From Candidatus Aenigmatarchaeota archaeon (GTDB lineage Archaea; Aenigmatarchaeota; Aenigmatarchaeia; GW2011-AR5), in NCBI GenBank assembly GCA_016187335.1, contig JACPJW010000001.1, forward strand, positions 671,159 to 735,158: a stretch of DNA of 64,000 bases, given 5' to 3'. Under the pieces are notes generated by a model. It saw only the letters and a program-made list of their open reading frames with translations, was not told the DNA's origin and ran no database searches. Position numbers and translations under genes: made by a program. Below, piece by piece: positions 1,094-57,599 of the stretch; position 1 is the first letter of the stretch, and every line of letters starts with the position of its first letter.

Positions 1094-1852
1094 TTATTTC
1101 AGAGTGAATTTTATTCTTTCAAATTCGTCTATTTTTCTCTTTGCGGATTTTAGGTATCTGTATGTTTTCTGTATTCTGATGGCAACCTTGTCTGCATAGG
1201 CCTCTTCTTCATCTGAATCGTGGTGAAACCTTGCCAGCAGCGAAAGCGGCGAGAAAAATTTAAGCAGAGAAAAAGACAGTTTTAATACAGATGCCTTGCG
1301 TTTCAGATGCCCAAGTTCATGCAGTATTACAGCTTCTATCTCTTTTTTGTTAAGAAGGTCAATAAGCCCTGCAGAAAGGAATATCATTGATTTGAATGAT
1401 CTGAAAGAAAATGCGACGGGGTTCGCGTTGTCGATTACGTAAACCTTCGGCATTCTGATTTTCATCCTTGTAGAATGTTTCTCTACAAATCCGACTACGT
1501 GAAAATTCTCCACCTCGTATTTTCTGCTGAAGAACATGTAAAAGCCGGGTATAACTAAAAAACCTGCTACCGTGCTAATTAAAAGCGTTGTTGGAAGCGC
1601 CAGTGAAACTAAGTTCAAAAGGCTGTTTGTACATGCGCAAGTGAAACTGCACATAGTGGCATTTGTAGTCAAGACTACGAATGGGAAAAACAGGAAAATT
1701 AAATGGCCGTAAATAAGCCCGATTTTCGATTTTGTTGAAAGCTTGGATTTCTTCAGAACCAGCAGCGTAATTATGGCAAGCAAAAGGGAGCTTGCCATCA
1801 GCAGTAATTTGTCGGGGTCTATAGAAAACCCGGCATAGCACGCGTCCAACAT
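1094..1852 (-). CDS. BlaR1-like (M56/M48) membrane zinc metallopeptidase
   Basis: N-terminal TM helices, then a HELGH (HExxH) motif. Lies directly downstream of a BlaI-like repressor. Start placed at Met19 (1852), 1 nt after the upstream stop; the ORF track start is 1906. Confidence 0.6.
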   Translation of the reverse strand: MLDACYAGFSIDPDKLLLMASSLLLAIITLLVLKKSKLSTKSKIGLIYGHLIFLFFPFVVLTTNATMCSFTCACTNSLLNLVSLALPTTLLISTVAGFLVIPGFYMFFSRKYEVENFHVVGFVEKHSTRMKIRMPKVYVIDNANPVAFSFRSFKSMIFLSAGLIDLLNKKEIEAVILHELGHLKRKASVLKLSFSLLKFFSPLSLLARFHHDSDEEEAYADKVAIRIQKTYRYLKSAKRKIDEFERIKFTLK

Positions 1853-1853
1853 T

Positions 1854-2237
1854 CTACTTCCTCTTTGAAAACCTTTTATAAAAGTAATTGGCTGCGACAG
1901 TTCCAAAGTTGTTCATAAGCTTGTTTACAGTATGTTCAATAACTGACTCCTCGAATTCATGCTTTGTCTTTTTAGGATAATAAATATAATGTCCGCCACC
2001 ACGACCTTTCTCTATTGTTCTGGATACTATGCCTTTCTGGTGAAGCCTGTCAAGGGTTACCGCAACGCTTGTCAACGCAAAATTTCTGTTTCTTTTCAAT
2101 AGCCTGTGAAGTTCTGCGACACGGGCTTTGTCCATTTTCCACAGAAGGAGCAATATTTCTGTTTCCAGCGGGCTCAAAAGAGTTTTCACGCCCTTTCTGT
2201 CTAACCTTAATTTATTTACCTTCATCATAGAAACCAT
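1854..2237 (-). CDS. BlaI/MecI/CopY-family winged-helix transcriptional repressor
   Basis: LSPLETEILLLLW...ARVAELHRLL...TSVAVTLDRLHQKGIVSR is the penicillinase-repressor family signature. Paired with the BlaR1-like gene. Confidence 0.7.
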   Translation of the reverse strand: MVSMMKVNKLRLDRKGVKTLLSPLETEILLLLWKMDKARVAELHRLLKRNRNFALTSVAVTLDRLHQKGIVSRTIEKGRGGGHYIYYPKKTKHEFEESVIEHTVNKLMNNFGTVAANYFYKRFSKRK

Positions 2238-2399
2238 GTTTTTAATTTAATTTCAGGAACAGTATATTTTATGAATATGTATCCAGTTTCTTAAATACTT
2301 TACAAAATCTGTAAATCTTGCGAGAACCAAAAATATTTAAATAACCCCGAATAAGATATTTAAAGCTTTACATAACTTGTAAATGTATTCGGTGATTGC

Positions 2400-3773
2400 T
2401 TGAAGAAAAAACGCCCCAATACAAGCTATATGACTGACGAAGAAAAAGAAGCTTACGAGAAACTCCAAGAAAAGTTTGAGCTCGTGCCGAAGAAAGAGCA
2501 AAAGAAAAGAATTTCTAAAAAATCCACCCATGATTCTGAGAATGTTGTTTTGCATACAATAGGCATCGTAAAGCAGCCTCTTTACGCAAAAACTTTCGCC
2601 ACAAGCGCTATACTGTTTGGAATTCTGTACACATTTTTATACGGCCTATGGAGGATACCAGTTATAGATTTCGGATTTAACAGGTTCTCTGCTGTAGGGA
2701 TTTTAGATTATGCGTATCTGCTTATTATTACGGCCATCACGGGCTTGATGTTTGCTTTGTTCAAGTATGAAAGGGTTCAACACGTCAAATCAGGTTCCAA
2801 AGCTGGTTTGGGCGGCAGCGGATTGGCGGGTATTGTGTCGGCTATCTGCCCGGTCTGCCAAGGCATAACGATAACCGCATTGGGAGGAACAATAGCCACA
2901 TTGCCGCTTGCATTCCTTGTCCCTTACATAGGATTAATCCAACTTATGACAGTTTTGATTTTAGGTTTCGCGCTTTACCTAAAAGCTAACAGCGTATATA
3001 CGCAAACCTGCATAACGTGCAAAGTTAAGGTTGATAAAAAATTGCACACAGAAATTCCTTCTACGGGCACACCAAAAGCGAAAGAGCCCTTTTTGTACAG
3101 GAATAATATCGCTTTTGGCGCTTTGATTGTTTTGGTTTTGATGCTTGTTGCAAATAATTTTCTTATAACAACTGCTTACGCAAATGCCGGCGCATCTGCC
3201 GGCCTAAACGGCGACAGCGTATCTTTGAAAACGGGATTTGAATACGGCTCTAAAGTTACGCTAAAGCCAATGCCTTTGGCAACCGGCGAAAGCCCGCGAT
3301 TTCAGGGGTATAGAACAATAGTAAAGCCTTTGCCGACCATCAGCGAATTATCATTATCTCCGCCGACTGGTGACGTAGTTCAGGACCTTGTGAATAACGT
3401 TGTTCCAAGAGGGACACCATGGTACGGGCAAGAGGCGGGCGTAACATTTGACGACCCAATACAAGCGCAGCAGCTCTGGGCAAAAGGCAGGGCAATCCAG
3501 CTCGATGCTGCAGAGGAACAGCGATGGAGCAGGATAGTCAATTCATTCACATGCGACTACTGCTGTGGCTCTCCGCAGAATCCAACTATCATAACAAGGT
3601 GCGGTTGTGCGCACTCGGCAGCTGCGCAGGGCATGGCAAAATGGTTTGTAAAGAATTACGGAGACAAATACTCTGACGAAGAAATATACGGCGAAATGGC
3701 AAGATGGTATGCGTTGTGGTATCCCGGTCCTACAGTAAAGAGAATTGCAGAGGAGTTGCAGGCGGCAAATTAG
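2400..3773 (+). CDS. Polytopic membrane protein with an intramembrane CPVC motif and a C-terminal Cys-rich domain
   Basis: Lys/Glu-rich cytoplasmic N-terminus; TM helices containing SAICPVCQG; C-terminal FTCDYCCGSPQNPTIITRCGCAHS cluster. The start could instead be the ATG at 2430. Confidence 0.5.
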   Translation: MKKKRPNTSYMTDEEKEAYEKLQEKFELVPKKEQKKRISKKSTHDSENVVLHTIGIVKQPLYAKTFATSAILFGILYTFLYGLWRIPVIDFGFNRFSAVGILDYAYLLIITAITGLMFALFKYERVQHVKSGSKAGLGGSGLAGIVSAICPVCQGITITALGGTIATLPLAFLVPYIGLIQLMTVLILGFALYLKANSVYTQTCITCKVKVDKKLHTEIPSTGTPKAKEPFLYRNNIAFGALIVLVLMLVANNFLITTAYANAGASAGLNGDSVSLKTGFEYGSKVTLKPMPLATGESPRFQGYRTIVKPLPTISELSLSPPTGDVVQDLVNNVVPRGTPWYGQEAGVTFDDPIQAQQLWAKGRAIQLDAAEEQRWSRIVNSFTCDYCCGSPQNPTIITRCGCAHSAAAQGMAKWFVKNYGDKYSDEEIYGEMARWYALWYPGPTVKRIAEELQAAN

Positions 3774-3783
3774 GCATGATTTT

Positions 3784-4311
3784 ATGGCAAAAAGAAAGAA
3801 CAAAATCAGCGATAAAATGATTGGAATTATGATGGGTATAGCTTTCACGCTCAGCGCCATAGGGATAATCAATGCAGCATATGTTTTCTTTGCGCACAAA
3901 AATGAAGGAAATTCTATGATGGATTCAGGAGGTAGGATGCCTATGATGATGAGTTTCTCATATTCATCTCCTGATAATGCCGCCATACAAAGCCAGCAGC
4001 AAGAAGAACAAGAAGGCAAAAAGTTTTTGGATAACCTAAACAACAAAATAGTTGTCTGTCCACAACTCAAGAATGCAGATTTTGAGAAAATTGGTGAATA
4101 TTTTATGGGTCAATCCATTGGAGATACTTCGAGGCACATTGCCATGAATGAAATGATGAAATCAATGATGGGAGAACAGGGGGAAGAACAAATGCATATC
4201 GCAATGGGCAAGCGAATGAGTAATTGCGAACCTGACGCACCAATGCCTCAAAATATGATGGGCAGCGACATGATGTCTGGAAATATGATGCGCTCAATGA
4301 TGATGGGTTAA
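3784..4311 (+). CDS. Membrane-anchored Met/His-rich protein (Mets-motif-like, putative Cu(I) binding)
   Basis: Single TM helix (MIGIMMGIAFTLSAIGIINAAYVFF), then Met-rich segments (MMDSGGRMPMMMSF, MNEMMKSMMGEQGEEQMH, MPQNMMGSDMMSGNMMRSMMMG). Confidence 0.5.
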   Translation: MAKRKNKISDKMIGIMMGIAFTLSAIGIINAAYVFFAHKNEGNSMMDSGGRMPMMMSFSYSSPDNAAIQSQQQEEQEGKKFLDNLNNKIVVCPQLKNADFEKIGEYFMGQSIGDTSRHIAMNEMMKSMMGEQGEEQMHIAMGKRMSNCEPDAPMPQNMMGSDMMSGNMMRSMMMG

Positions 4312-4362
4312 TAGTGGTGATTCAATGGAAAATAAAAAGAAAAAGAAAGGAGGCTGTTGCTG

Positions 4363-4578
4363 ATGGAAAGAAAAGAGCTGCTGATGACGCTGATGATAGG
4401 CGTGCTTCTGCTCACGACAGCCATGCAGACAGTAGCTTTGGCAAGTTTGAGCAACGGACAGGTAGTGGTAAGAGGCAAAGCAGTTGCAAGCAGCCCGGCA
4501 CCAAGCTCAAGCGCGCCGTCGACAGGCGGTTCGGCATCTAGCTTAGCGAACTTGCCAAGCATGGTAGGCGGCTGCTAG
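4363..4578 (+). CDS. Small secreted peptide (71 aa) ending in GGC
   Basis: AAAGGAGG lies 9 nt upstream of the ATG at 4363. Signal-peptide-like LLMTLMIGVLLLTTAMQTVALA, Ser/Pro/Ala-rich body, C-terminus LPSMVGGC. Confidence 0.4.
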   Translation: MERKELLMTLMIGVLLLTTAMQTVALASLSNGQVVVRGKAVASSPAPSSSAPSTGGSASSLANLPSMVGGC

Positions 4579-4601
4579 CTGAAACGCATGGTTGATGACG
4601 A

Positions 4602-6005
4602 ATGGGCAACAAAACATTAGACATTATTTTATATATTTTTATAGCGTTAGCAGTTGTACTTTCTGTCGTAAATTTTTCGCTTATATCTGCCCGAAGCGAA
4701 AAAGTAAAGGAAGCTGTTCTGTTGGCTGAAAAAGAAAACAAGCCGGCTAAATTGGAATTGATAAAAATTATCTCTTCTTCTTGCCAGGATTGTTTCGATA
4801 TAAATCCTGTTATTGAAACCCTCAAGAAAGCGAACGTCAACGTCACTTCTGAAAAAACTATAGATTTTTCTTCGCAGGAAGCAAAGCAGCTTATAAGTCA
4901 GTACAACATAGAAAAGCTTCCTACTGTTGTAGTTCTGGGTGAAGTCAATAAATCTTCCGTAGTCAATTTATGGAACCAGAACTGGTACGTTGAAATGGCT
5001 GACGGCACGCAGGTTTTAGCTGTTTATTCTGCCGTGGCTCCACCTTATGTGGACGCAGCATCCGGTGATTTCAGGGGTCTTGTAGCCTTAACGCATATTT
5101 TAGACGAATCGTGTCCGGATTGCGCAGACCTTATGCAGGTAATAAGCTTCTTCAAGCAGCAGAATGTCAAGTTCTCAAGCGAGAAAACAATTGACTATAC
5201 TTCTCAAGAAGCCAAAGACCTAATAGCTAAGTTTGAGGTGCAGAAAGTTCCAGCTTTGATTATCTCTAAGGATATTCTAGATTACCCAGCTATATCTCAA
5301 GTATGGGATCAGCTAAATACCAGTGAGAAGCAAGGTTTCTATGCGCTGCACACAACCGTTCCGCCATATAGGGATTTGGCCACAAACAAAATTGAAGGGT
5401 TGGTAACTGTAATTTACCTTAATGACAGCACATGTGCAAGCTGCTACGATGTCCAGATTAACAGGCAGATTCTGGAAAGAAACTTTGGAGTGGTAATTGC
5501 AAACGAGACAACTGATGATATAAATTCTGAAAACGGCAGATCGTTAGTAAAGCAGTACAACATAACAAAGGTTCCTATAATGCTTGCTTCCCCTGATGCC
5601 AGCGTGTATGCAGCCTTTACTGAGATCTGGCAACAGGTTGGGAATGTCGCTAAAGACGGATGGTATGTAATGAGAAAGCCGGAAGTTTTGGGAACTTACA
5701 AGGATCTAGCCAAGGGAATTGTTGTGAATGAGGTAACTGTTTATGCAGGCGAATTTGAATTCCAGCCAAATGCTATCGAGGTCAAGAAAGGTGAAACTGT
5801 TCGGCTGACTTTCATAAACGCGGGGACAGTTGAGCATGACTTTGTTATAGACGAGCTAAATGTAAGAACAAAACGCTTGCAGCCGAGAACATTAGAGACT
5901 ATAGAATTTGTGGCGGACAAAAGCGGCGCGTTTTCATTCTACTGTTCCGTTGAAGGCCATAGGCAGCAGGGTATGGAAGGATCTATTACTATAAGCCAGG
6001 TGTGA
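4602..6005 (+). CDS. Membrane-anchored fusion of three thioredoxin-like CxxC modules and a C-terminal cupredoxin domain
   Basis: N-terminal TM helix. Three repeats each carry CxxC (CQDC, CPDC, CASC) and a downstream K(L/V)P cis-Pro motif. C-terminus VEHDF...FYCSVEGHRQQGMEGSITI gives the His, Cys-x4-His-x4-Met pattern of a type-1 copper site. Confidence 0.65.
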   Translation: MGNKTLDIILYIFIALAVVLSVVNFSLISARSEKVKEAVLLAEKENKPAKLELIKIISSSCQDCFDINPVIETLKKANVNVTSEKTIDFSSQEAKQLISQYNIEKLPTVVVLGEVNKSSVVNLWNQNWYVEMADGTQVLAVYSAVAPPYVDAASGDFRGLVALTHILDESCPDCADLMQVISFFKQQNVKFSSEKTIDYTSQEAKDLIAKFEVQKVPALIISKDILDYPAISQVWDQLNTSEKQGFYALHTTVPPYRDLATNKIEGLVTVIYLNDSTCASCYDVQINRQILERNFGVVIANETTDDINSENGRSLVKQYNITKVPIMLASPDASVYAAFTEIWQQVGNVAKDGWYVMRKPEVLGTYKDLAKGIVVNEVTVYAGEFEFQPNAIEVKKGETVRLTFINAGTVEHDFVIDELNVRTKRLQPRTLETIEFVADKSGAFSFYCSVEGHRQQGMEGSITISQV

Positions 6006-6009
6006 GCAA

Positions 6010-6492
6010 ATGGGGGTCGCAAAGCCAAAATCCAATGTAGTTCTAGGCGCAGTCGTAATAGCCGCTGTGTTTGTTGCAGGACTGATTTACGTTCAATTCA
6101 CAAAGCAGAATGAAGTAGCGGATAATTACCAAGTTGCACCACCCGAAGAAGTCGTTAGGCAATATTTTACGTCGTGGAACAATAGAGACTGGCCCAATAT
6201 GTACGCAACTTTGTCAGACGGATTCAAGAAAATTGATCCCAATGCTAAAGACTTAGCTGCATTCAGAAACTTTGCAAGCTCTCAAGGTATAGAAGGCGTT
6301 AACATAATAAGCATAAAAGAAGAGTCTAATGACGGAACTACAGCTAGCGTTGTATATTCTATTGAATTCACATTATCAAATGGAAGCAAGAGGCCGTTCA
6401 GCGATAGATTTACACTGAAATTCAGGCAAGGCGACATCATTCCCGGCTGGAAGCTTATTCACCCGTACGGCCCCAACATTGATACTTCGTAG
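6010..6492 (+). CDS. Membrane-anchored NTF2/SnoaL-like domain protein
   Basis: N-terminal TM helix; VVRQYFTSWNNRDWPNMYATLSDGF resembles the SnoaL/NTF2 fold signature. Confidence 0.4.
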   Translation: MGVAKPKSNVVLGAVVIAAVFVAGLIYVQFTKQNEVADNYQVAPPEEVVRQYFTSWNNRDWPNMYATLSDGFKKIDPNAKDLAAFRNFASSQGIEGVNIISIKEESNDGTTASVVYSIEFTLSNGSKRPFSDRFTLKFRQGDIIPGWKLIHPYGPNIDTS

Positions 6493-6574
6493 GCGATTGG
6501 ATGAAGAGCAAACTAGTAAAACATATCGGCATGATGACATCATTTTGTTGATAATTAACGCAAGAGGTAAAAAT

Positions 6575-7327
6575 ATGGACAATACAGAAAAATTTGCTTT
6601 TGGGTTTCTTGGAATAGCATCTATAATAGCGGTATTCGCAATGCTCTCTGCGTTTAATATCGTACAGCTCAATTCAAATCCAGCAACAGGAAATTCTGTC
6701 CAGAATTCAATGGGCCAGCGGTTAACAAGAATGAGCTTGTCGCCTTTCGATGTCCAGCTTGCGAAGCAGTTCATGGACAAGAACGGCGACGGCAAATGCG
6801 ATGTATGCGGCATGGATGTGCAGATATGCATAGACAGCGGGCAGATGCAGTGCAATATGGATTCCAAATCTACTATAGGTGTTCTAGGCTCGCAGCATAT
6901 TCATGCTGACTGGAAAATATATATAAACGGCAAAGAATTAGACGATAATTTTTTTGACTCTATAGCTATGAACATGTCAAATGAAAACAATGGCATATCG
7001 AGCAGTTTCATACATGTTGACAAAGGCGCGCCTTCACCGGAAAAAACAGGTAATGTATTGCATATGCATGCTACCGGAGTGCCATTATGGATATTCTTCA
7101 AAAGCGTGGGAATGGATTTCAATAAAGACTGCCTGTCGCTTTCAGATGGACAAAAATTCTGCAACGCTGGGGAAAATACTTTGAAATTCTATGTAAACGG
7201 AAAGCCTAACAGCGAATGGGAAAAATATGTTTTCAACGATCTGGACAAGATTCTGATTTCATATGGAGAAGAAACAGACCTGAGCCAGCAGCTGAATTCA
7301 ATAACGGATTTCGCAAAGAGTCATTGA
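6575..7327 (+). CDS. Membrane-anchored protein with a CxxCGM Cys cluster and a His-rich C-terminal domain (paralogue of 9454..10140)
   Basis: GAGGT lies 6 nt upstream of the ATG at 6575. TM helix; DKNGDGKCDVCGMDVQICIDSGQMQC; HIHADW...LHMHATG...KFYVNGK...NDLDKILISY aligns with the C-terminus of the 9454 gene product. Confidence 0.5.
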   Translation: MDNTEKFAFGFLGIASIIAVFAMLSAFNIVQLNSNPATGNSVQNSMGQRLTRMSLSPFDVQLAKQFMDKNGDGKCDVCGMDVQICIDSGQMQCNMDSKSTIGVLGSQHIHADWKIYINGKELDDNFFDSIAMNMSNENNGISSSFIHVDKGAPSPEKTGNVLHMHATGVPLWIFFKSVGMDFNKDCLSLSDGQKFCNAGENTLKFYVNGKPNSEWEKYVFNDLDKILISYGEETDLSQQLNSITDFAKSH

Positions 7328-7333
7328 TACTTT

Positions 7334-7792
7334 ATGAAAAGGAAAAATAGTAGCAAGGCGCATAAAGAAAAATTTCTCAGCATGTTTAGTGGGCTTTCAG
7401 GTAGCTTGAGCTTTCTGGGCGGATGGCAGGTTTGCCATAATTTATGCCTAGGTATTATAGCTCTGCTGTCAGTGGTGGGCATAGCAGTAGTTGGCATGCC
7501 GTTTTTGTTTTTAACGCAGTACGCTGTATATTTCTGGTCGCTAGCTGCATTGCTTCTTGTACCTACGCTTATATTGTACTGGAAAAACAGAAAATGCATC
7601 TCCGCGAATCTGATACTGTTTAACATAGGCATTGTAATCGCAAGCGTGCCTTTTGCGCAGCTGCAGGCTTATCAAGTAGCATTCTGGCTAGTTGGCGGCG
7701 TTTTAATTGCATCTTCTGTGTGGATGTTTGTAAAGCCGAAGTTTCAAAAGAACAATAAAAATTTAGCTTCTGGTGCTATTTCAGCGCCTTGA
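7334..7792 (+). CDS. Small integral membrane protein with a CxxxC motif
   Basis: About 4 TM helices; GGWQVCHNLCLG at the first helix; 6 nt downstream of the preceding gene. Confidence 0.4.
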   Translation: MKRKNSSKAHKEKFLSMFSGLSGSLSFLGGWQVCHNLCLGIIALLSVVGIAVVGMPFLFLTQYAVYFWSLAALLLVPTLILYWKNRKCISANLILFNIGIVIASVPFAQLQAYQVAFWLVGGVLIASSVWMFVKPKFQKNNKNLASGAISAP

Positions 7793-7910
7793 GCAGAAGT
7801 TTTCGCGCTTCTGGCGTCAATGACTTCCTGAGATTCTTCGTGCATATACAGACGCAGCAGTCGCATGCAGGACAGACACCGCCCGTGCAGCATGATTTTC
7901 TTCGTGTCAT
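7776..7910 (-). CDS. Unannotated 44-aa cysteine-rich peptide (8 Cys), metallothionein-like
   Basis: ATG at 7910 is preceded by AAAGGAGGT (GGAGG 8 nt upstream) and lies 27 nt downstream of the ccdA stop. Translation: MTRRKSCCTGGVCPACDCCVCICTKNLRKSLTPEARKLLLKALK. Below the 60-aa cutoff of the ORF track. Confidence 0.5.
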   Translation of the reverse strand: MTRRKSCCTGGVCPACDCCVCICTKNLRKSLTPEARKLLLKALK

Positions 7911-7937
7911 AGCATCAACCTCCTTTGAGCAAAAATA

Positions 7938-8780
7938 TTACGGGAAAAATAAGGCAACAAATTGCTTAGCGTAAAGCACTGTAATTATGATGAATAACCC
8001 AGCCAGCATGAGAACGATTGCGGATATTTTTAGTATCTTATGGCTCGACTCGCGCAGGAAATTTATCTTAGCGGTGCCGACAAGAAGAGAAACCGTCAGC
8101 ATCAAAATTCCCATTGTCAGCGAATAAATAACAAAAGCCAAAAGCGCAGCATTAAACCCGCTAGCCAACGCAAGGACAATCAATCCAGCAAGAATAGGGC
8201 CGGTGCAGCCTATATTTCCCAAGTTATAACCGAACCCGTAGAAGAAATAATTCTCTGAGCTCTTTTTTCCCGAAACAAATTTATGACTTATGCTTTTGAA
8301 CAGTTGCCCCTGTACTGAAATATGAAAGAATTGCAGTACGCCAAGGATGAACAAAATTCCGCCTACTATTGCCCTTATTGTCAGAGTAATACCCGAAAGC
8401 TGGCCGCTTTCTGCAACCGAAAAGGCAGACCCAATTCCCAGGCCAATGAAGGCAAGAATAACGCCCAGAATTATGTTGAATGAGACTAATCCTGCCGATG
8501 CCAAAACCCCGTTTCTAAAAATAGCACCCTTGTGTAAGTTCTTGCCCTTCCCGTATAGTGAGAGGTATGCTGGCAGCAAACCGAAAGAGCATGGGGAAAA
8601 GAATGTTGCCAGGCCTGCAAATACTGCAACAATCATCAGAGGCAGCACGCCCAAAGTAGCCATATTTTTTGCGAATTCAAGAAAGCCAAAATACCCTGCA
8701 ACCGTGATTGCTATCAATACTGCGAGGAATACTACATATAAGCCAGCTTGTCCCTTGGCATCTGAACCCATAAAAATCAC
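7938..8780 (-). CDS. ccdA: CcdA/DsbD-family transmembrane thiol-disulfide electron transporter
   Basis: FFSPCSFGLLPAYL and GNIGCTGPILAGL are the two conserved Cys-containing TM motifs of the DsbD_2/CcdA family. Confidence 0.75.
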   Translation of the reverse strand: MIFMGSDAKGQAGLYVVFLAVLIAITVAGYFGFLEFAKNMATLGVLPLMIVAVFAGLATFFSPCSFGLLPAYLSLYGKGKNLHKGAIFRNGVLASAGLVSFNIILGVILAFIGLGIGSAFSVAESGQLSGITLTIRAIVGGILFILGVLQFFHISVQGQLFKSISHKFVSGKKSSENYFFYGFGYNLGNIGCTGPILAGLIVLALASGFNAALLAFVIYSLTMGILMLTVSLLVGTAKINFLRESSHKILKISAIVLMLAGLFIIITVLYAKQFVALFFP

Positions 8781-8816
8781 GCTTTAATAGTTTCTTTTGT
8801 ATACTATTAGTGTTGT

Positions 8817-9209
8817 ATGAAATATAAGGCAGGCAGTTTCATGGCAGAAACCAGTTTACGCGCAGTAACTAATGGAAAAGAATGCAAAATGGTAGGCGGC
8901 GGCTATTGCCCAAAGCCCCTGGAAATCGCTGCTTCTTTCCTCAGTAGGAAGTGGACGCTAAGCATAATAGTAACGATAGGAAATTTCGGCTCGCTAAGGT
9001 TCAACGATTTGCTCAGGCGAATTGAAGGTATAACACAGAAAACATTGTCCGAAAGGCTGAAAGAGCTTGAGCGGCACAATATAATAATCCGTCGCGCTTT
9101 CAATGAAAAGCCTCCCCGTGTCGAATATTCGCTTACGCCAAACGGTCATAATGTTCGAAAAGCTGTTTTGCCGCTTCTGAAACTTGCTGAAAAAAAACAC
9201 TTTCATTAA
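8817..9209 (+). CDS. HxlR-family transcriptional regulator
   Basis: CP...LSRKWTLSIIVTIGNFGSLRFNDLLRRIEGITQKTLSERLKELERHNII...EYSLTPNG is the HxlR signature. Divergent from ccdA. Confidence 0.75.
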   Translation: MKYKAGSFMAETSLRAVTNGKECKMVGGGYCPKPLEIAASFLSRKWTLSIIVTIGNFGSLRFNDLLRRIEGITQKTLSERLKELERHNIIIRRAFNEKPPRVEYSLTPNGHNVRKAVLPLLKLAEKKHFH

Positions 9210-9453
9210 AAGAAACGCTTAAACATTACATATTTAAACATCCGATGCAATTTTATTCAATTCAAATTTTTGTAAAGGTTATGTGATAAAATGGCTGAAG
9301 ATTCAATAACCTTCAAGAAAAGCACGGTCCAGCTTATCGCTGTTCTCGTTGTCGGCTTGATTATAGGATAACCCAATACTGGGATGAGTCCGACATATGC
9401 GGCAACTGAGCTGTTTAAAAATTTTGGCATTAATCTAAGCAAAGAGACAAATT

Positions 9454-10140
9454 ATGGAAGAAAAAGAAGAAAAACACCAATGCAGTGAATGCGGAAAGGA
9501 GTTCAGCGCGGCGGAAGGTCTGGCGCAGCACATGCGCGACAAGCATTCGGCAATGACCAGCCATGAACTCAAGGAACAGCGCAAAAAAGAGAGGGAAGAT
9601 CAGCTGAAAAAAGAAAAGGATAAGTCGGAGCGCTCAAAGCTGACTAGAAAGATCCTGATTGTCGGCGGTGCTTTTCTTTTACTGTCAGGGCTGATTTACG
9701 CTTTTCTTGTCCTTAGCAAAGGCGGCGGCGAATCGCGCCTTGCCGACGAGGAATATATCCTGCGTACCAATCTGAGGACGCACAGCGGCGTAAGCATGCA
9801 CATACATCCCCATTTGATAATAATCGCAAACAACGAAAACGTGAATATACCGGCTGAGATAGGCATTGAAGGCGGCATAATGAGAGTTATACATACCCAT
9901 GACGCAACAGGAACAATTCATCTGGAATCGCCGGTTCCTAAGGACTTCACTTTAGGCCAATTCTTCTTCGTGTGGTCGCGAACCAGCGGCGAGCCGAAAG
10001 TATTCAATTCGTCTTGCATCCTCAGCTATTGCAATAACGGAACGAAGGCGGTGAAGATGTTCGTGAACGGCAAAGAAAGCGACGAATACGAGAATTACAT
10101 CATGCACGATCTGGACAGGATAGAGATAAGATACGAATAA
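9454..10140 (+). CDS. C2H2 zinc finger / TM helix / extracytoplasmic His-rich domain protein
   Basis: HQCSECGKEFSAAEGLAQHMRDKH fits C-x2-C-x12-H-x4-H. Lys/Glu-rich linker, TM helix (ILIVGGAFLLLSGLIYAFLVL), then HIHPHL...IHTHDATGTIH...MFVNGK...HDLDRIEIRY, paralogous to 6575..7327. Confidence 0.55.
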   Translation: MEEKEEKHQCSECGKEFSAAEGLAQHMRDKHSAMTSHELKEQRKKEREDQLKKEKDKSERSKLTRKILIVGGAFLLLSGLIYAFLVLSKGGGESRLADEEYILRTNLRTHSGVSMHIHPHLIIIANNENVNIPAEIGIEGGIMRVIHTHDATGTIHLESPVPKDFTLGQFFFVWSRTSGEPKVFNSSCILSYCNNGTKAVKMFVNGKESDEYENYIMHDLDRIEIRYE

Positions 10141-11349: not shown

Positions 11350-12363
11350 ATGCCAGAACACATTCACGCAGCCAGCAAAACAAAATGGGACGTTGTAATC
11401 ATCGGCGCAGGCTCTGCAGGTCTCACTGCAGCGGTTTATACCTGCAGGAAAAAGCTGTCCACGCTGATTTTAAGCGTTGACGTAGGCGGTCAGACAATCC
11501 TGACAAACCATATTGAGAATTATCCAGGCTTTTTCAAAGAGACACCCGGCTATCCGTCCGGGCCAAAACTTATGCAGATTTTTGAGGAGCAGGCAAAGCA
11601 TTTCGGCGCAGAGATAATAATGGGCAAGGTGACGAAGGTAGAGGTTGTGAATGAAAGCCCCACGCCGGAAAATCCTTACAAGTTTGTTCTGGAATTAAGC
11701 AACGGCGAGCGGTACGAAGCAAGGGTTGTTTTGCTGGCATACGGCAAGGTTCCCCGCGAGCTTGGCATCCCCGGCGAGAAAAAGTTCATAGGCCGCGGCG
11801 TCAGCACGTGCGCAACATGCGACGCTCCCTTATTTAGAAACAAAAACGTTGCTGTTATAGGCGGCGGCAACTCAGCTGTTGAGGCCGCTGAGCTTTTGAC
11901 AAAGTTCGCCAGCAAGGTTTACCTCGTCCATCGGAGGGACCAGTTCCGCGCTGACGAAATAACCATGGACAAGGTAAAGGCGTCGCCGAAAGTAGAACTT
12001 GTTTTAAACAGCATGCCTGCAGAAATCAAAGGCGACAAGTTTGTAAGCGGTCTGGTTGTCCAGAATGTCAATACTCAGGAAACAAGAGAACTTCCTGTTC
12101 ACGGTGTTTTCGTCGAGATCGGCTATATCGTGGTGACGGATTTTGTCAAAGATTATGTCGAGGTGAACAAGGCCAATGAAATTGTCGTTAATGAAAACTG
12201 CGAGACGAGGACGCCCGGTTTGTTCTCGGCAGGTGATTTAACAAACATACCGTTCAAGCAGACCATAACTTCCGCAGGCCAGGGCGCGATAGCCGGCTTG
12301 TCCGCCTACAACTACCTGATGCGCCTGCAGGGCAAGGCAGGCATTAAGGCTGATTGGGCTTGA
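11350..12363 (+). CDS. trxB: Thioredoxin-disulfide reductase
   Basis: FAD motif DVVIIGAGSAGLTAAVY, redox-active CATCDA, NAD(P)H motif VAVIGGGNSAVEEA-like. Confidence 0.85.
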   Translation: MPEHIHAASKTKWDVVIIGAGSAGLTAAVYTCRKKLSTLILSVDVGGQTILTNHIENYPGFFKETPGYPSGPKLMQIFEEQAKHFGAEIIMGKVTKVEVVNESPTPENPYKFVLELSNGERYEARVVLLAYGKVPRELGIPGEKKFIGRGVSTCATCDAPLFRNKNVAVIGGGNSAVEAAELLTKFASKVYLVHRRDQFRADEITMDKVKASPKVELVLNSMPAEIKGDKFVSGLVVQNVNTQETRELPVHGVFVEIGYIVVTDFVKDYVEVNKANEIVVNENCETRTPGLFSAGDLTNIPFKQTITSAGQGAIAGLSAYNYLMRLQGKAGIKADWA

Positions 12364-13500: not shown

Positions 13501-13659
13501 ATGCCAACAAAAAAATCTTCAGCGAAGCAAAAATTATACAAATGTAAGCACTGCGGTTTTGGTTACAGAGAGAAAAAATGGCAGCGCGCCTGCGAAGCAT
13601 GGTGCTCGAAGCACAACAGCTGCAACATCATGATAACGAGGCACGTAGTGAAGAAGTGA
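13501..13659 (+). CDS. Small (52 aa) Cys/His-rich zinc-ribbon-like protein
   Basis: ATG is preceded by GGTGG 7 nt upstream. Translation: MPTKKSSAKQKLYKCKHCGFGYREKKWQRACEAWCSKHNSCNIMITRHVVKK. Below the ORF-track cutoff. Confidence 0.35.
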   Translation: MPTKKSSAKQKLYKCKHCGFGYREKKWQRACEAWCSKHNSCNIMITRHVVKK

Positions 13660-14090: not shown

Positions 14091-14887
14091 TCAAACCACT
14101 TCTGCAGGTTTCCAGACAAAATATTTCCCAGATCGCGCATCGAAATGTTAAGGATACTTGCGACATGAATTATGGATTCCAGCGAATAGTCGCAGCTTAC
14201 ATAAGGAACGTCAGAACCATATACTATGCTTGTTTTGTCCGCTTTGTCTATGAGGTTGTAAAGGTCAAATACGCTTGTCGCCGACGTTTCGAAATAAACA
14301 TACCTTGATTTTGACATTTTTCTGATGACCCTGTCCATGTCGATAAAAGCTGAATGACCTAAAATAAGGCGGAGTCTCGGGAAATCTTTCACGACCATTT
14401 CCAGTTCGACCGATATTTCATTCAGCCCGTGACCTGTATGTATCAGCACTGGTAAGTCGTGCTTTTCTGCTTTGGCATATACTTTCATTGCTTCGTCGGA
14501 TGCAATGTCAAAATGCTGCGAGCGTGGATGCAGCTTTATGCCCATGAATCCCTGTGATGCACGCTTCTCAAACTCTTCTTTCCATTTTCTTTTTGGATTC
14601 AGGCGAAAGAATGGAATAAGCTTTCTCTTGTGGGATTTGTAAGCGTTGTATACAAAGTCGTTTGGCTTTGAAAAACTCTGGTCGTAGGGATCATTTAGTG
14701 GAAATATAACTGCCTTTTCTATTCTGCAGCTTTTGATATCCTTCATCAACTCATTTAATGAAAAAAGTGTTCCGTCCTTGTCTTTGCCTATGTGTGTATG
14801 AGCATCCCATACCTCGAACTGGTCGAAAACCCACTCTGCTACCTTGAAAGCTTTCTCGCCAACAAAGTATTTTGTCCATTTAGGCAT
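14087..14887 (-). CDS. Metal-dependent amidohydrolase (TIM-barrel, Amidohydro_2-like)
   Basis: WDAHTHIG near the N-terminus; later HTGH and GHS His motifs; GSDVPY near the C-terminus. Confidence 0.6.
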   Translation of the reverse strand: MPKWTKYFVGEKAFKVAEWVFDQFEVWDAHTHIGKDKDGTLFSLNELMKDIKSCRIEKAVIFPLNDPYDQSFSKPNDFVYNAYKSHKRKLIPFFRLNPKRKWKEEFEKRASQGFMGIKLHPRSQHFDIASDEAMKVYAKAEKHDLPVLIHTGHGLNEISVELEMVVKDFPRLRLILGHSAFIDMDRVIRKMSKSRYVYFETSATSVFDLYNLIDKADKTSIVYGSDVPYVSCDYSLESIIHVASILNISMRDLGNILSGNLQKWFE

Positions 14888-14936
14888 AATGACACAGAAA
14901 ACTATGAGATTTAAATCTTTTATACATTTTTATTCC

Positions 14937-15869
14937 ATGTTAAAGATAGGAATCGTTTTTGACAGGGTCAAATGGATTCAAAGACCTTTCGACAAGAGGT
15001 ACTCTTATTCTTACAGGATTCTGTCAAAGGTGGCAAGACAGCACGGCATTGAAGTCTATATAAGCGACCTGAAAAATTACAGGGCGAGAAAATTTGCAAA
15101 ATGCTGGTTTTGCGAAAAAAGTTGGAAAATACTCCGCAACAGGTATATTGACATGGTTTTTGACAAAATGAGCACTTCCGGCAGGAATGTCCTGAAAAGA
15201 ATGCGGGTGAGAATGATGAGGGAATTGCCTATTGTTAACCACCCCGAACTGAACGAAATTTCTGAGGACAAGTATCTTTCTTATACGATCTTCCGGGAAT
15301 ATTTCCCGAAAACATACCTTCTAAGCACAAGCGGCATAAGGAAGGCTCCGGCAGGACTTTATGTAATGAAACCTAGGCACGGCTCAAGAGGAGAATTTAT
15401 CAGAATAATGGAAAAGGAAAAGCTACAACCGAAGAAAGACTTTATTTTTCAGGAATTCATCGACACGTCAGGCGGCATTAAGGATGTCATAAACAAAGTT
15501 CACGACTTGAGGCTGGTCTCAATAAACGGAAAAATAATCAAGGCATACCTTAGAGTCCAAAAAAAAGGCATTATAAACAATATGGATACCGGAGAGTTTG
15601 AGATTCATATCGAAAAATCTAAAGTACCAGAAAGCGCAGTTAAAATATTCAGGATAGTTGACAGGAAACTTAGTAAGTACGATTTCAGGTTCTATACAAT
15701 AGATTTTTTGGTTGACAAAGATCAGAAACCTTGGATATGCGAGCTAAACACTCATCTGGGTCTGGGGATTGCAGGTAAAAAAACGAAAGAAATATATTTT
15801 AACATGTACAGAGAAATTCTGCTTGCTATGAAAAGGTATTATCTAAAACTCGGGTCCGGAAAAAACTAG
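14937..15869 (+). CDS. ATP-grasp ligase (YheC/YheD- or RimK-like), paralogue 1
   Basis: KPRHGSRGE..., FQEFIDTSGG...HDLRLVSINGKII, TIDFLVDKDQKPWICELN. Start moved to Met32 (14937) to match its paralogue. Confidence 0.6.
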   Translation: MLKIGIVFDRVKWIQRPFDKRYSYSYRILSKVARQHGIEVYISDLKNYRARKFAKCWFCEKSWKILRNRYIDMVFDKMSTSGRNVLKRMRVRMMRELPIVNHPELNEISEDKYLSYTIFREYFPKTYLLSTSGIRKAPAGLYVMKPRHGSRGEFIRIMEKEKLQPKKDFIFQEFIDTSGGIKDVINKVHDLRLVSINGKIIKAYLRVQKKGIINNMDTGEFEIHIEKSKVPESAVKIFRIVDRKLSKYDFRFYTIDFLVDKDQKPWICELNTHLGLGIAGKKTKEIYFNMYREILLAMKRYYLKLGSGKN

Positions 15870-45992: not shown

Positions 45993-46328
45993 ATGAGTTC
46001 ACCTAAAGACTATCAGAAAGTCTCTCCTCTAAGTTTTGAAAACCGTTGTAGAGAAATAAGTCTTATAACCATTCAAACCCTGCCGCGCGCCATCAATGAC
46101 AAATATAAGGTCAGCAACGTCCTGGCGTTCACAGCTTTCGCCATTACTTGCCATATCGCTGGAGAGCTTAACTTCCAGGTTCGGAATGGATCTGGGTGTG
46201 CCCTCTCCGCCTTGGTCGCCAACCACATTACTATTCAAGGATAAAGGATTTAAAGACTTTAAAAACCGTCAGGACGAAACAGGATTTTTCTGGGTAAAAG
46301 CCGAAACCCGCCTTCCGTTTTTCTTCAA

Positions 46329-56774: not shown

Positions 56775-57599
56775 TTAAGCCATTTCCTTCAGTCTTTTTA
56801 TCCTTAATTCAACGGGCGGGTGCGTGCTGAACAGCGAAGCGACGCCGCCTGCTGAGAACGGGTTTATTATGAACATGTGCGCTGTCGCCTCGTTCCCGCC
56901 GCGCATCGGCTTCTCTTCCGCGGCTTTCGATATCTTGCCCAGGGCGGCTGCCAGTGATAATGGGTTTGATATCGCTCCTCCGGTTCTGTCCGCGGCGTAT
57001 TCCCTGCTGCGCGAAATTGCCATCTGTATGAGCATCGCTGCAAGCGGCGCAACGATGAAAAGGAGCAGGTAGCTGAAAATATTCCTGTTTTCCCTGTCGC
57101 CGAAAAAGAACAAATGCCCTATCCACGTGATTGCGCCCGCCATTGTAGCCGCCATGGCCTGCGTGAGCGTGTCCCTGTTTTTGATGTGGGCTATTTCGTG
57201 CGCAATCACTCCTTCTATCTCGTCGTCGTCCAGTTTCTCAACGAGCCCTTTGGTCACGGCAACGACGCCCTTGCTTGGCGAGCGTCCTGTTGCAAAGGCA
57301 TTAGGCGTTTCCGTATCAAGGTAGTAAAGGCGCGGCTTCGGTACGCCTGCTTTTTCGGCAAGCCGCTCCGTCATCCTCTCTATGTTCCTGTGTTTTTTCG
57401 TGTCCAGCGGCTTTGCCTTGTATATCCACAGCACAAAGCGGTCGGAATACCAGTAAGCGAGGAAATTCATGATTCCTGCGAAAGCCAGGCCAAAAAGCAT
57501 CCCGCCCGTCCCGCCGAAATAGTAGCCTATAGCCAGGAATAGAGCGGTCAGGAAAGCCATCAGCGTGAATGTTTTAAGCCATGACATAAAAATCATCAA
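56775..57599 (-). CDS. htpX: HtpX-family M48 membrane zinc protease
   Basis: HEIAHIKNRD and a downstream EYAAD Glu ligand; TM topology fits HtpX. Confidence 0.85.
   Translation of the reverse strand: MMIFMSWLKTFTLMAFLTALFLAIGYYFGGTGGMLFGLAFAGIMNFLAYWYSDRFVLWIYKAKPLDTKKHRNIERMTERLAEKAGVPKPRLYYLDTETPNAFATGRSPSKGVVAVTKGLVEKLDDDEIEGVIAHEIAHIKNRDTLTQAMAATMAGAITWIGHLFFFGDRENRNIFSYLLLFIVAPLAAMLIQMAISRSREYAADRTGGAISNPLSLAAALGKISKAAEEKPMRGGNEATAHMFIINPFSAGGVASLFSTHPPVELRIKRLKEMA

Follow-up and report, generated by a model that had tools for sequence, protein, structure and literature searches.

Does a run of genes for membrane-anchored and secreted proteins rich in Cys, Met and His, lying around a ccdA-like gene in an aenigmatarchaeal genome, form a single system, and what does that system handle? 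An earlier note on this DNA had proposed coupled copper handling and disulfide reduction at the cell envelope. The cluster was examined in a window of 64,000 nucleotides, which is the whole stretch of DNA that was analysed, and in related genomes. Every gene that had been listed was found in place, and starts were then checked against homologues (Table 1).

Table 1. Positions of the cluster, its regulators and its neighbours in the window.
Feature	Position	Strand	Evidence or content
BlaR1-like membrane Zn-protease (M56/M48)	1094..1906	-	Pfam Peptidase_M56 2.5e-11, Peptidase_M48 1.3e-10
BlaI/MecI/CopY-family winged-helix repressor	1854..2237	-	Pfam Penicillinase_R 6e-15
Operator-like palindrome 1, TTACAAAATCTGTAA	2300..2314	.	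TTACA-N5-TGTAA match
Operator-like palindrome 2, TTACATAACTTGTAA	2368..2382	.	TTACA-N5-TGTAA match
Protein A (447 aa)	2430-3773	+	4-TM core, fifth TM, extracytoplasmic 5-Cys/1-His domain (A_C)
Protein B, membrane-anchored, Met-rich	3784-4311	+	25 Met in 145 extracytoplasmic residues (17%)
Peptide C (71 aa)	4363-4578	+	Signal or anchor segment, Ser/Pro/Ala linker, C-terminal LPxMVGGC
Protein D	4602-6005	+	Pfam Cupredoxin_1 3.7e-12, Thioredoxin_3 1.1e-7; NCBIfam matches
Protein E, anchored	6010-6492	+	Sub-threshold SnoaL_2, SnoaL_3, MecA_N matches (Pfam)
Protein F	6575-7327	+	Anchor, 4-Cys CDxCGM...C...C module, His/Met-rich domain
Protein G, small polytopic membrane protein	7334-7792	+	Intramembrane C-H-x-x-C (CHNLC in TM1)
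H, cytoplasmic 44-aa peptide	7776-7910	-	8 Cys
I, divergent DsbD/CcdA-family transmembrane thiol:disulfide conduit	7938-8780	-	hhalign to DsbD_TM-carrying family
J, HxlR-family regulator	8817-9209	+	Pfam HxlR 7.1e-23; divergent to H
Protein K	9454-10140	+	Cytoplasmic C2H2 finger, one TM, extracytoplasmic His-rich domain
trxB, thioredoxin reductase	11350-12363	+	Pyr_redox_2 2.4e-47
sod	12789-13391		

Genes A to G (2430-7792) form a same-strand operon with intergenic gaps of 4-82 nt, and all of its products are membrane-anchored or polytopic. The seven genes described earlier were confirmed together with their metal and thiol motifs. These Cys, His and Met motifs, which run through hundreds of homologues, are not chance occurrences: among 20-22 diverse homologues they were invariant in A, D and F, and in C, G, H and I they were conserved. 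The gene order was repeated in dozens of species. From the N-terminal signal-anchor topology, both the CxxC modules and the cupredoxin are predicted to lie on the extracytoplasmic side. No significant match to families A, F/K and G was found in Pfam, NCBIfam or PDB, and by sequence comparison most of the operon's proteins belong to undescribed families. As A, F and G have no detectable kinship with a characterised metal or redox family, their roles as given below are guesses from motifs. Synteny, metal and redox motifs, topology and family matches all came out in the direction that the earlier note had predicted.

In protein D, the N-terminal anchor is followed by three thioredoxin folds, with the active-site motifs CQDC, CPDC and CASC, and by a cupredoxin of the type-1 copper class, the fusion that had been described. 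All three CxxC pairs, and likewise the positions of the cis-Pro residues, were invariant or nearly so among 22 homologues, and the cupredoxin aligned with the T1Cu domain of PDB 2dv6 (4.3e-15), with conserved His, Cys, His and Met ligands. Judged by these residues, all three thioredoxin active sites of D are intact and its type-1 copper site is complete. The cupredoxin shares its fold and His-Cys-His-Met ligand set with that domain, the N-terminal part of Hyphomicrobium NiR, and with plastocyanin and CopI, but differs from these blue-copper proteins in being fused to thioredoxin domains. The match to the CopI model was partial (1.9e-11, 44 bits, far below the cutoff of 280 bits), and the His/Met-rich CopI region was absent. 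Two of the homologous cupredoxin fusions, P0037 and P0039, no longer have the Cys and His copper ligands.

Protein A combines an intramembrane CP(V/A)C motif (CPVC here, in a TM helix) and a cytoplasmic-loop Cys with a C-terminal region reading CDYCCG...CGCAH; C140, P141, C143, C194, C375, C378, C379, C391, C393 and H395 were invariant in 22 homologues. Its N-terminal core has a homologue in relatives, a membrane protein of 150 aa that is encoded on its own (hhalign 6.6e-48). AlphaFold modelled A_C with pLDDT of 85-97, and searches of the PDB by fold and by profile returned no match to this domain. The TM CPVC region was modelled with pLDDT below 40, which counts against the reading that we favour. 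Protein F carries CDVCGM and His clusters, and an invariant C-terminal His closes its His/Met-rich domain. It has more than 575 homologues at 56-86% identity, without a Pfam domain; among the diverse homologues compared, C77, C80, C87, C95, H110, H112, D114, H149, H165, M166, H167 and H252 are invariant. Its AlphaFold model (pLDDT 69) gave only weak structural matches, to beta-grasp folds. The His-rich domain of K is paralogous to the C-terminal domain of F (profile match 100% probability, 2.7e-45, about 140 aa), as had been proposed, and its zf-C2H2 match (1.1e-4) fell below the Pfam cutoff. Protein G adjoins F in 64/80 loci, and its family is small, with 125 clusters at 50% identity in a set of 1.84 billion proteins. 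Suggested affiliations with YHS/TRASH, PCYCGC and MerT-like families were not confirmed by profile tests; for A and G, MerT homology was unsupported (NCBIfam E 0.022, hhalign probability 1-8.5%).

Met-rich protein B, whose C-terminal end is MMGSDMMSGNMMRSMMMG, was present in just 9/80 loci and had no match in a Pfam search. Peptide C, ending in MVGGC, occurred in 30/80 loci with its C-terminal LPxMVGGC motif at least 95% conserved. Protein E, present in 45/80 loci, is probably NTF2/SnoaL-like, as first suggested; the matches are all below threshold, those of its homologues to SnoaL_3 or MecA_N are also weak, and no Cys, His or Met is conserved among these homologues.

Beyond the operon, I matched a family carrying Pfam DsbD_TM (hhalign 100% probability, 7.7e-56) and both of its TM cysteines are conserved, which bears out the earlier naming of this gene as ccdA; the window protein itself had no Pfam match at E<=0.1. 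A DsbD-family gene occurred in 27/80 loci. Here, I lies on the strand opposite to A-G and has no palindrome, which counts against the reading favoured below. The Cys pattern of H, a candidate metallothionein-like peptide, was kept in 12-13 homologues, each adjoining an HxlR gene, and the H-J pair was found in 11 loci. Both trxB and sod lie downstream as reported. However, sod was not conserved with the cluster and does not belong to it, and trxB, a plausible peripheral source of reductant, adjoined it in only 6/80 loci.

Divergent to A, here and in relatives at 27-76% identity, lies a BlaI-like repressor, accompanied by a BlaR1-like membrane protease; the pair adjoins the cluster in 29-31 of the 80 loci. 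These regulators define the unit; the earlier note had passed over both them and their operators. The likely start of the protease is the ATG at 1852 (252 aa). Its HExxH motif and one outward-facing Cys (C92) were at least 95% conserved in 29 homologues. Two operator-like palindromes sit in the promoter region common to the BlaI/BlaR1 pair and A-G, the second flanked on one side by a TATA-like, A/T-rich stretch and on the other by the start of A. They are the only matches to TTACA-N5-TGTAA in the window, where 0.03 were expected. In 84 related loci (1.13 Mb) there were 42 matches versus 3.15 expected, an approximately 13-fold enrichment, and 35 of the 42 lay no more than 200 nt upstream of a cluster gene (BlaI, A, F, G, K or B). 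TACA/TGTA dyads serve as operators for BlaI, MecI and CopY, and proteolysis controls BlaI (PMC7253601). The arrangement resembles BlaR1/BlaI (MecR1/MecI) and CopY in having a Penicillinase_R repressor beside an M56 membrane protease and two promoter dyads of this type (PMC7253601). It differs in that the protease (252-270 aa) lacks the penicillin-binding sensor domain, the repressor, having no Cys, lacks the CxC copper site of CopY, the half-sites are spaced by N5 rather than N2, and what is controlled is a set of archaeal genes for redox and metal functions of the envelope.

Synteny, which the earlier note had proposed to check, was kept in many relatives. Gene set, gene order and palindrome recur across DPANN lineages: A, C, the triple-thioredoxin (3xTrx) protein, E, F, G, K, DsbD/CcdA and BlaI/BlaR1 are syntenic across Aenigmat-, Woese-, Pace-, Iain- and Nanoarchaeia, and the cluster was found in some CPR bacteria too. 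Among 31 loci of at least 15 kb, G was present in 28, A_C in 25, 3xTrx in 24, E in 19, BlaI in 18 and DsbD in 13. The co-occurrence figures here and above are conditional on F or D, through which the loci were retrieved. G is fused to F in P0381, P0435, P0450 and CPR contigs, and to an HMA domain in P0378 (HMA 5e-15); in one relative an HMA+DsbD+cupredoxin-like fusion adjoins the cluster (L090:10291-12033).

It is this context that suggests a copper role. Cupredoxin, multicopper oxidase (MCO), CopA or HMA genes occurred in 18/31 loci of at least 15 kb, with CopA in 9/31; MCO genes lie within the cluster in L001, L005, L013, L041 and L045, and PadR genes neighbour it in relatives, with CopA. 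The window itself holds no CopA, MCO or HMA gene and no separate cuproenzyme gene. The proposed coupling of copper to thiol chemistry is backed by the T1Cu site of D, by these neighbours and by the HMA+DsbD+cupredoxin fusion. Against a copper role count the lack of CopA, MCO and HMA genes in the window, the lost ligands of P0037 and P0039, and the 3xTrx proteins of most homologous clusters, which have no cupredoxin.

Known systems offer partial parallels. ScsABCD consists of a DsbD-like membrane reductant conduit with membrane-anchored or periplasmic thioredoxin-fold proteins, and the cluster likewise has a DsbD-like conduit and an anchored thioredoxin-fold protein. Scs of Salmonella, Proteus and Caulobacter provides envelope copper tolerance, coupling copper stress to thiol-disulfide exchange (PMC11634996). 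In contrast, no homologues of ScsA, ScsB, ScsC or ScsD were identified in the cluster, which has a triple thioredoxin with or without cupredoxin, the unannotated partner families A, F, G and K, and BlaI/BlaR1 control in an archaeal host in place of CpxR. In the TlpA-Sco-PCuAC, CcdA/DsbD and S. pneumoniae CcdA-Etrx-MsrAB2 pathways, cytoplasmic thioredoxin feeds CcdA/DsbD and then an anchored extracytoplasmic thioredoxin, which serves copper-site assembly or oxidative-damage repair. The cluster would share a conduit feeding an anchored outer thioredoxin, but has no Sco, PCuAC or Msr domain, and D joins three thioredoxin domains and a blue-copper domain in a single chain. The TM-helix Cys pairs of A (CPVC) and G (CHNLC), together with the cytoplasmic-loop Cys and, in one relative, an HMA fusion, recall the thiophilic-metal relay of MerT/MerP and the CPx motif known from P1B ATPases; a soft-metal relay across the membrane is a plausible analogy.

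Other readings were weighed against this evidence. A general extracytoplasmic system for oxidative folding or disulfide isomerisation would fit the likeness of D to thiol oxidoreductases such as archaeal PDO and PedC-like proteins. It would also fit the triad of 3xTrx, A_C and an F-like protein, which nearly every lineage has, in most cases with no cupredoxin, and the build of A, in which four TM helices and a linker TM, with a CxxC inside the membrane, are joined to an outer domain rich in Cys. In such a DPANN Dsb analogue A or a cupredoxin/MCO would be the electron sink, and copper proteins would be cofactors, not substrate; to our knowledge, DPANN archaea are expected to lack DsbB/VKOR and quinones. 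We consider this unlikely, however: the stress-type BlaI/BlaR1 switch does not look constitutive, the DsbD/CcdA partners indicate a reductive branch, and it would be left unexplained why HMA is fused to G and to DsbD, why Met and His are invariant in F and why CopA/PadR genes lie nearby.

We are similarly doubtful of a machinery for maturing extracytoplasmic cuproproteins (the CuA-like cupredoxins and MCOs of DPANN), by analogy with TlpA-Sco-PCuAC, with thioredoxin domains reducing Cu-ligand cysteines and F, G and A delivering copper. CuA assembly does pair a reductive thioredoxin with Cu-binding proteins, and in many loci separate CuA-like cupredoxin and MCO genes lie inside or beside the cluster. 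CuA-type 'nosZ-like' proteins are common across DPANN (PMC10936187). However, the window lacks the separate cuproenzyme gene, the exporter CopA with PadR, a detoxification context, adjoins the cluster equally often, and repressor-and-protease control and Met-rich B look like a stress response.

A defence system directed at a different thiophilic metal (Hg, Ag, Cd, Zn), at envelope oxidants other than metals or at reactive sulfur, with copper genes nearby only because metal and redox genes cluster, seems quite improbable. HMA domains are not specific to copper, a MerT/HMA gene lies in the L001 cluster, Zip and GDT1 transporters lie near it in L089, AhpC/Redoxin adjoins a paralogous A_C+3xTrx pair, and trxB and sod are close by in the window. 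Yet the metal-specific sites readable from sequence are all copper sites (T1Cu in D, CuA-like motifs, MCO), no MerA or ars genes were seen, and MerT homology of A and G is unsupported. That unrelated membrane proteins lie together by chance is barely credible: several families lack annotation and B, H and J occur in a minority of loci, but order conserved across orders and phyla, gene fusions and a common palindrome upstream of several cluster genes effectively refute it.

In the copper and thiol reading that we favour, the membrane protease would sense envelope stress, perhaps via its conserved outward-facing Cys, and inactivate the Cys-free repressor, as BlaR1 does with BlaI, de-repressing A-G. 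Reducing equivalents are predicted to pass from TrxB through cytoplasmic thioredoxin and I to the three thioredoxin domains of D on the outer face, and A may carry them too, by way of its CPxC in the membrane and its Cys cluster outside. D would maintain the ligand cysteines of A_C, F and peptide C in the reduced state and repair wrong disulfides formed by copper catalysis. Outside the cell, copper would be bound or buffered by the D cupredoxin, Met-rich B, F (Cys4 with His/Met) and K, and Cu(I) or electrons might cross the membrane via the intramembrane Cys motifs of G and A. The H/HxlR pair would extend the system into the cytoplasm, sensing thiols there and supplying a Cys-rich peptide as buffer.

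The earlier interpretation is partly supported: the copper role is inferred from context, the suggested YHS/TRASH, PCYCGC and MerT-like affiliations were not confirmed, sod and, in most loci, trxB do not accompany the cluster, and the regulators had been passed over. The balance tips modestly towards the whole region (1094-10140) being one regulated unit, an inducible cell-envelope system for thiol redox and a metal, most likely copper, that is conserved in DPANN archaea; the operon's proteins would most likely be engaged in copper handling and in maintaining surface thiols in reduced form.

The seven same-strand genes A-G and the genes just downstream (H-K) were delimited from an ORF list refined with homologue alignments, the named homologues being from Aenigmatarchaeota and other DPANN MAGs. 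Intergenic spacing within A-G was 4-82 nt, and all of the motifs quoted in the earlier note, which had proposed a coupled copper and disulfide system at the cell envelope, were present. The remainder of the window was core archaeal chromosome, with RNA polymerase B, A' and A'', EF-2, EF-1alpha, aIF2-gamma and aIF5B. Within the RNA polymerase A'' gene (Rpb1 domain 5; 36076-38553, minus strand) there is an intein, which has a homing-endonuclease domain of the LAGLIDADG type (Intein_splicing 2.9e-20, LAGLIDADG_3 1.9e-18). A 5S rRNA gene was present at 46109-46223 (minus strand, 62.5 bits), with no match to other rRNA and no tRNA gene in the window.

Coordinates of the cluster genes and their regulators (A-G from the ORF list refined with homologue alignments)
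Gene	Position	Strand or placement	Remark
M56/M48 membrane protease	1094-1906	beside repressor, divergent to A	
Penicillinase_R repressor	1854-2237	divergent to A, directly upstream	BlaI/MecI/CopY family
A	2430-3773	same-strand run A-G	
B	3784-4311	same-strand run A-G	
C	4363-4578	same-strand run A-G	
D	4602-6005	same-strand run A-G	
E	6010-6492	same-strand run A-G	
F	6575-7327	same-strand run A-G	
G	7334-7792	same-strand run A-G	
H	7776-7910	minus, downstream of A-G	
I	7938-8780	minus, downstream of A-G	
J	8817-9209	plus	Pfam HxlR, 7.1e-23
K	9454-10140	downstream of A-G	

Topology was assessed from a crude analysis of hydropathy and charge and from the N-termini of the homologues, which are strongly basic. 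B, C, D, E and F were predicted to have a single N-terminal signal-anchor with most of the chain outside, and A to have five TM helices with its Cys-rich domain (A_C) outside. G and I appeared polytopic, K appeared to combine a cytoplasmic C2H2 finger, one TM and one outside domain, and H and J were predicted to be cytoplasmic. The CxxC and cupredoxin modules of D and the A_C domain are thus placed outside the membrane, as the envelope reading had supposed.

Protein D had been described as a fusion of three CxxC thioredoxin-like modules to a cupredoxin, and both parts were borne out. The CxxC pairs C61/C64, C171/C174 and C278/C281 were invariant in 22 sequences, and the cis-Pro positions P107, P217 and P325 invariant or nearly so. 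D matches several thioredoxin models, of which Pfam Thioredoxin_3 spans two stretches; the third domain was assigned from the internal repeat and conservation. The cupredoxin was recognised by Pfam Cupredoxin_1 (3.7e-12) and Copper-bind (7e-7), both over cutoff, and by comparison with the type-1 copper domain of Hyphomicrobium nitrite reductase (PDB 2dv6, 4.3e-15). Its full type-1 ligand set (His...Cys-xn-His-xm-Met), EHD...YCSVEGHRQQGM, pairs residue for residue with QHD...YCSIAGHRQAGM of 2dv6, and was kept in 10 of 12 cupredoxin-fused D homologues, being gone in P0037 and P0039.

Protein I, previously named ccdA, had no Pfam match at E<=0.1, and its match to the DsbD portion of NCBIfam TsoB (1.7e-4) was far under cutoff. 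Profile-profile comparison with a family that includes a member carrying Pfam DsbD_TM gave 100% probability (hhalign, 7.7e-56), and both TM Cys are conserved, in SPC at 62-64 and GCTGP at 191-195 (15 and 31 homologues). I thus appears to belong to the DsbD/CcdA family, to which it is assignable by profile-profile comparison only. The three thioredoxin sites and this DsbD-family conduit form the thiol-disulfide side of the unit, and might alternatively belong to a Dsb-like oxidative folding system. We consider this unlikely.

On the soft-metal side are the type-1 copper site of D, protein B with its many Met, the domain of F that bears Cys4/His/Met, and the CPxC and CHxxC motifs within the membrane. 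Neither Pfam nor NCBIfam, nor sequence and profile searches of the PDB, gave anything significant for A, B, C, F, G, H or the outer domain of K; the sequence and profile searches with A and F had a single exception, in which the DKNGDG segment of F matched an EF-hand loop without significance. Homologues of A (50-83% identity) nonetheless share invariant C140/P141/C143, C194, C375/C378/C379, C391/C393 and H395, and those of F (56-86% identity, across phyla) share four Cys, six His and four Met that are likewise invariant, the very last residue included. Relatives have a standalone CxxC membrane protein of 150 aa that is a homologue of the membrane core of A (hhalign 6.6e-48). F and K have an outer 140-aa domain in common (2.7e-45), in agreement with the description of K as a His-rich paralogue.

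Structure prediction gave a confident model for A_C (pLDDT 85-97), a poor one for the TM CPVC region of A, and a moderate one for F (pLDDT 69). Foldseek returned no PDB fold match at E<=1e-3 for either protein; its matches for A were driven by generic helical membrane bundles, and the F model weakly resembled the beta-grasp of the transcobalamin beta domain/DUF4430 and Urm1/SAMP. Structural comparison, one of the checks proposed earlier, thus yielded a well-modelled domain without a known relative. The suggested YHS/TRASH and PCYCGC profiles did not hold for F, A or K, which had no such Pfam match at E<=0.1, nor at E<=10 for sub-sequences; the CDxCGM motif of F resembles merely the start of YHS. 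A MerT origin of A and G was likewise rejected: the NCBIfam MerTP match was weak (E 0.022, 14 bits against a cutoff of 180), and hhalign probability against the MerT/HMA protein of the related locus L001 was 1-8.5% for the membrane core of A, the 150-aa protein and G. MerT was kept as a possible analogy and dropped as membership. Protein E, a candidate NTF2/SnoaL-like protein, matched SnoaL_2 (1.2e-3), SnoaL_3 (5.6e-3) and MecA_N (4.4e-3), all under cutoff, and its homologues had weak SnoaL_3 or MecA_N matches.

In the literature on DPANN in connection with copper, thioredoxin, cupredoxin, DsbD or BlaR1, we found no description of the cluster, in keeping with the statement in the earlier note that no operon of this composition was described. 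CuA-type 'nosZ-like' cupredoxins have been reported in DPANN (PMC10936187). Among the functionally closest systems is Scs, the copper-sensitivity suppressor system, in which DsbD-like and Trx-fold proteins confer copper tolerance (PMC11634996); this likeness is functional and drawn from the literature, with no family match. The same applies to the CcdA-Etrx-Msr surface thioredoxin system and to CuA assembly, in its reductive branch through CcdA/TlpA/Sco/PCuAC. No Scs, Sco, PCuAC or Msr component was identified in the cluster, and D matched generic Trx/PDO models only (Pfam, NCBIfam). A role in cuproprotein maturation is an improbable reading to our mind.

Gene order was examined in relatives. 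Loci of D homologues at 76%, 71%, 49% and 40% identity share the layout BlaR1-BlaI / A-(B)-C-D-E...F-G, some with inserts (multicopper oxidase (MCO), MerT/HMA protein, CuA-like cupredoxin, DUF302, or a PadR-TRASH-CopA locus). An F-profile scan of one genome per GTDB species recovered 80 loci, from Aenigmat-, Woese-, Pace-, Iain- and Nanoarchaeia and a few Patescibacteria, so that the synteny looked for in related archaeal MAGs was readily found. By tblastn of the window proteins, these loci contained G (64/80), A_C (54), the triple-thioredoxin protein (51), E (45), an A-type membrane core (39), BlaI (31), C (30), the DsbD family (27), cupredoxin (16), CopA (14), PadR (13), MCO (7) and TrxB (6), counts that are lower bounds, since every locus was retrieved through F and a good number of the contigs break off early. 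Superoxide dismutase was near the cluster in none of the 80 and was rejected as a system member; of the trxB and sod genes noted beside the cluster, only trxB therefore recurs, and in few loci. Of the 31 loci that were 15 kb or longer, 28 had G, 25 had A_C, 24 had the triple-thioredoxin protein, 18 had BlaI and 18 had at least one copper marker.

Several further observations were made in these loci. The genome of L001 has a second, paralogous mini-cluster (L001:166-2460) with an A_C-like protein (162 aa), an AhpC/Redoxin gene and a triple-thioredoxin protein of 388 aa that has no cupredoxin; the modules thus seem to have been duplicated and to have specialised differently. Another module, about 50 aa long and with four Cys and several Met (…CSGCMSPDGMNHFC…), occurs in 19 loci and is missing from the window (for example L034:13276-13440, L040:12695-12859 and L017:8790-8936); a small gene encodes it, either following DsbD or lying between E and F, and L005 has it as a fusion with a CuA-like cupredoxin. 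Pfam returned nothing for this module, H, B, the outer domain of K or an extra G-fused domain (P0364-type). Short contigs with typical DPANN clusters labelled Saccharibacteria, Methanosarcinales or Gammaproteobacteria (L007, L023, L028, L035, L060 and others) are likely mis-binned and not real occurrences.

CopA, MCO, MerT/HMA and DUF302 genes adjoin the cluster in relatives. In a 1 Mb genome, a single-copy gene would be expected no more than 10 kb away from a randomly chosen gene in about 2% of cases; copA was found in 9 of the 31 longer loci (15 kb and over). Two things make copper the best-supported metal: no sites specific to any other metal are legible in the sequence, and genes for CopA, MCO and cupredoxin cluster with the unit. 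It is the probable metal only, since most relatives have no cupredoxin fusion, two fusions have lost the ligands, and tblastn of relatives' CopA, MCO, MerT/HMA and DUF302 found nothing in the window. Defence against other thiophilic metals or oxidants is in our estimation somewhat less probable still than the folding or maturation readings.

The G family is small, an exhaustive HMMER search of 1.84 billion proteins giving 125 clusters at 50% identity, and its fusions tie it to other parts of the system. G is fused to F in P0381, P0435 and P0450, and P0378 carries an N-terminal HMA domain on G (HMA 5e-15), which ties G to F and to a cytoplasmic metallochaperone-type domain; other members have a different outer domain with a GHH motif. 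In L090, the gene right after G (L090:10291-12033) joins an HMA domain (MxCxxC), DsbD_TM and two cupredoxin-like domains, in which C...CSMG motifs replace the type-1 ligands, in one 580-aa chain, and past it lie genes for a CopZ-like HMA protein, PadR and CopA. This fusion ties a DsbD-type thiol conduit to metal-binding domains. G+F fusion genes were also found on contigs of Uhrbacteria and other Patescibacteria (L081:9578-10612, L080:9518-10576, L085:9140-10468), whose neighbouring genes (Fmt, AddA-type helicase, GatA, ClpB) mark them as bacterial. DPANN archaea and CPR bacteria therefore have the module in common, presumably through transfer.

The earlier note had overlooked a BlaI/BlaR1-like pair upstream of A. 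The repressor has no Cys, and thus no C-terminal CxC-x4-CxC CopY/CopR copper site, and so cannot sense copper in the manner of CopY. The adjoining protease (Peptidase_M56 2.5e-11) has an HExxH motif (HELGH) and one outward-facing Cys, each at least 95% conserved in homologues. Unlike BlaR1, it stops after the protease domain (252-270 aa), with no transpeptidase or beta-lactamase match to a penicillin-binding (class D beta-lactamase-like) sensor. The 190 bp between repressor and A contain two copies of TTACA-N5-TGTAA (2300-2314 and 2368-2382), the only two in the 64 kb window (0.03 expected). In 84 related loci (1.13 Mb), 42 copies were seen against 3.15 expected, 35 of them upstream of homologues of BlaI, A, F, G, K or B, at a distance of up to 200 nt. 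The canonical cop/bla box of CopY/BlaI, TACA-N2-TGTA, was rejected: no TACANNTGTA occurs in the promoter region, where the same half-sites appear twice at N5, a spacing that differs from the BlaR1/BlaI operators. BlaI, MecI and CopY bind TACA/TGTA dyads, often as two operators, and BlaI is inactivated through proteolysis (PMC7253601); on these grounds we infer that A-G is a BlaI-type regulon de-repressed by the membrane protease.

One of two canonical cop-box matches in the window (TACAAATGTA, 13537-13546) lies inside a 52-aa Cys-rich ORF (13501-13659) and is probably due to chance (at least two matches in 2 of 100 shuffles). A scan for sigma-70 promoters and terminators was uninformative, the host being an archaeon. 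A second M48 peptidase (56775-57599, minus strand, 1.2e-37), weakly similar to the BlaR1-like protease (31% over 71 aa), has no BlaI adjoining it. H is a real conserved gene for a 44-aa, 8-Cys peptide and always pairs with the HxlR regulator J (11-12 loci), at times away from the main cluster; the pair resembles a module of its own for thiol sensing, the product of which would be metallothionein-like. A few kb past trxB and sod lie an ATP-grasp ligase (14844-15869, plus strand) and a GCS2-type glutamate-cysteine ligase homologue (16810-18180, minus strand), which could take part in low-molecular-weight thiol synthesis and would fit a local redox-defence neighbourhood.

These results establish the cluster as a conserved, co-regulated envelope unit joining thiol-disulfide chemistry with conserved soft-metal ligands, and that its genes are unrelated neighbours is in effect excluded. 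Of the coupled system first proposed, the type-1 copper site and the thioredoxin sites stand, with copper as its probable metal. We rate the cluster as a probable envelope thiol redox and copper system drawn largely from undescribed families. In the most economical mechanism, stress would be sensed by the protease, the repressor lost and A-G expressed. Reductant would pass from TrxB and thioredoxin to I (possibly A as well) and then to D, which would maintain surface proteins and Cys ligands in the reduced state; copper would be bound by the cupredoxin and by B, C, F and K, and G and A would pass Cu(I) or electrons across the membrane. More tentatively, and with somewhat less than an even chance of being right, this may be an undescribed envelope machinery of DPANN and some CPR, built mainly of the A core, A_C, F/K and G families, in which a transmembrane thiol relay is coupled to Cu(I) handling under a sensor-less BlaR1/BlaI-type switch.

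The cluster is among the best-conserved envelope gene sets of DPANN/CPR, and four of its families are without a name, Pfam model or structural relative despite strong conservation; those of A_C, F and G are candidates for new metal-binding folds. If our reading is right, a BlaR1/BlaI proteolytic switch serves metal or redox stress, with a predicted operator and regulon open to direct in vitro test; were the wider machinery true, no earlier pathway of this type would be dedicated to metal or thiol stress, and none would be known from Archaea. Ultra-small and for the most part uncultured, DPANN archaea and CPR bacteria live attached to other cells, and the envelope is therefore their main interface with the world. 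On our reading, the system would explain how such organisms, which are expected to lack DsbB/VKOR, quinones and the classical cus/pco systems, shield their surface thiols from copper.
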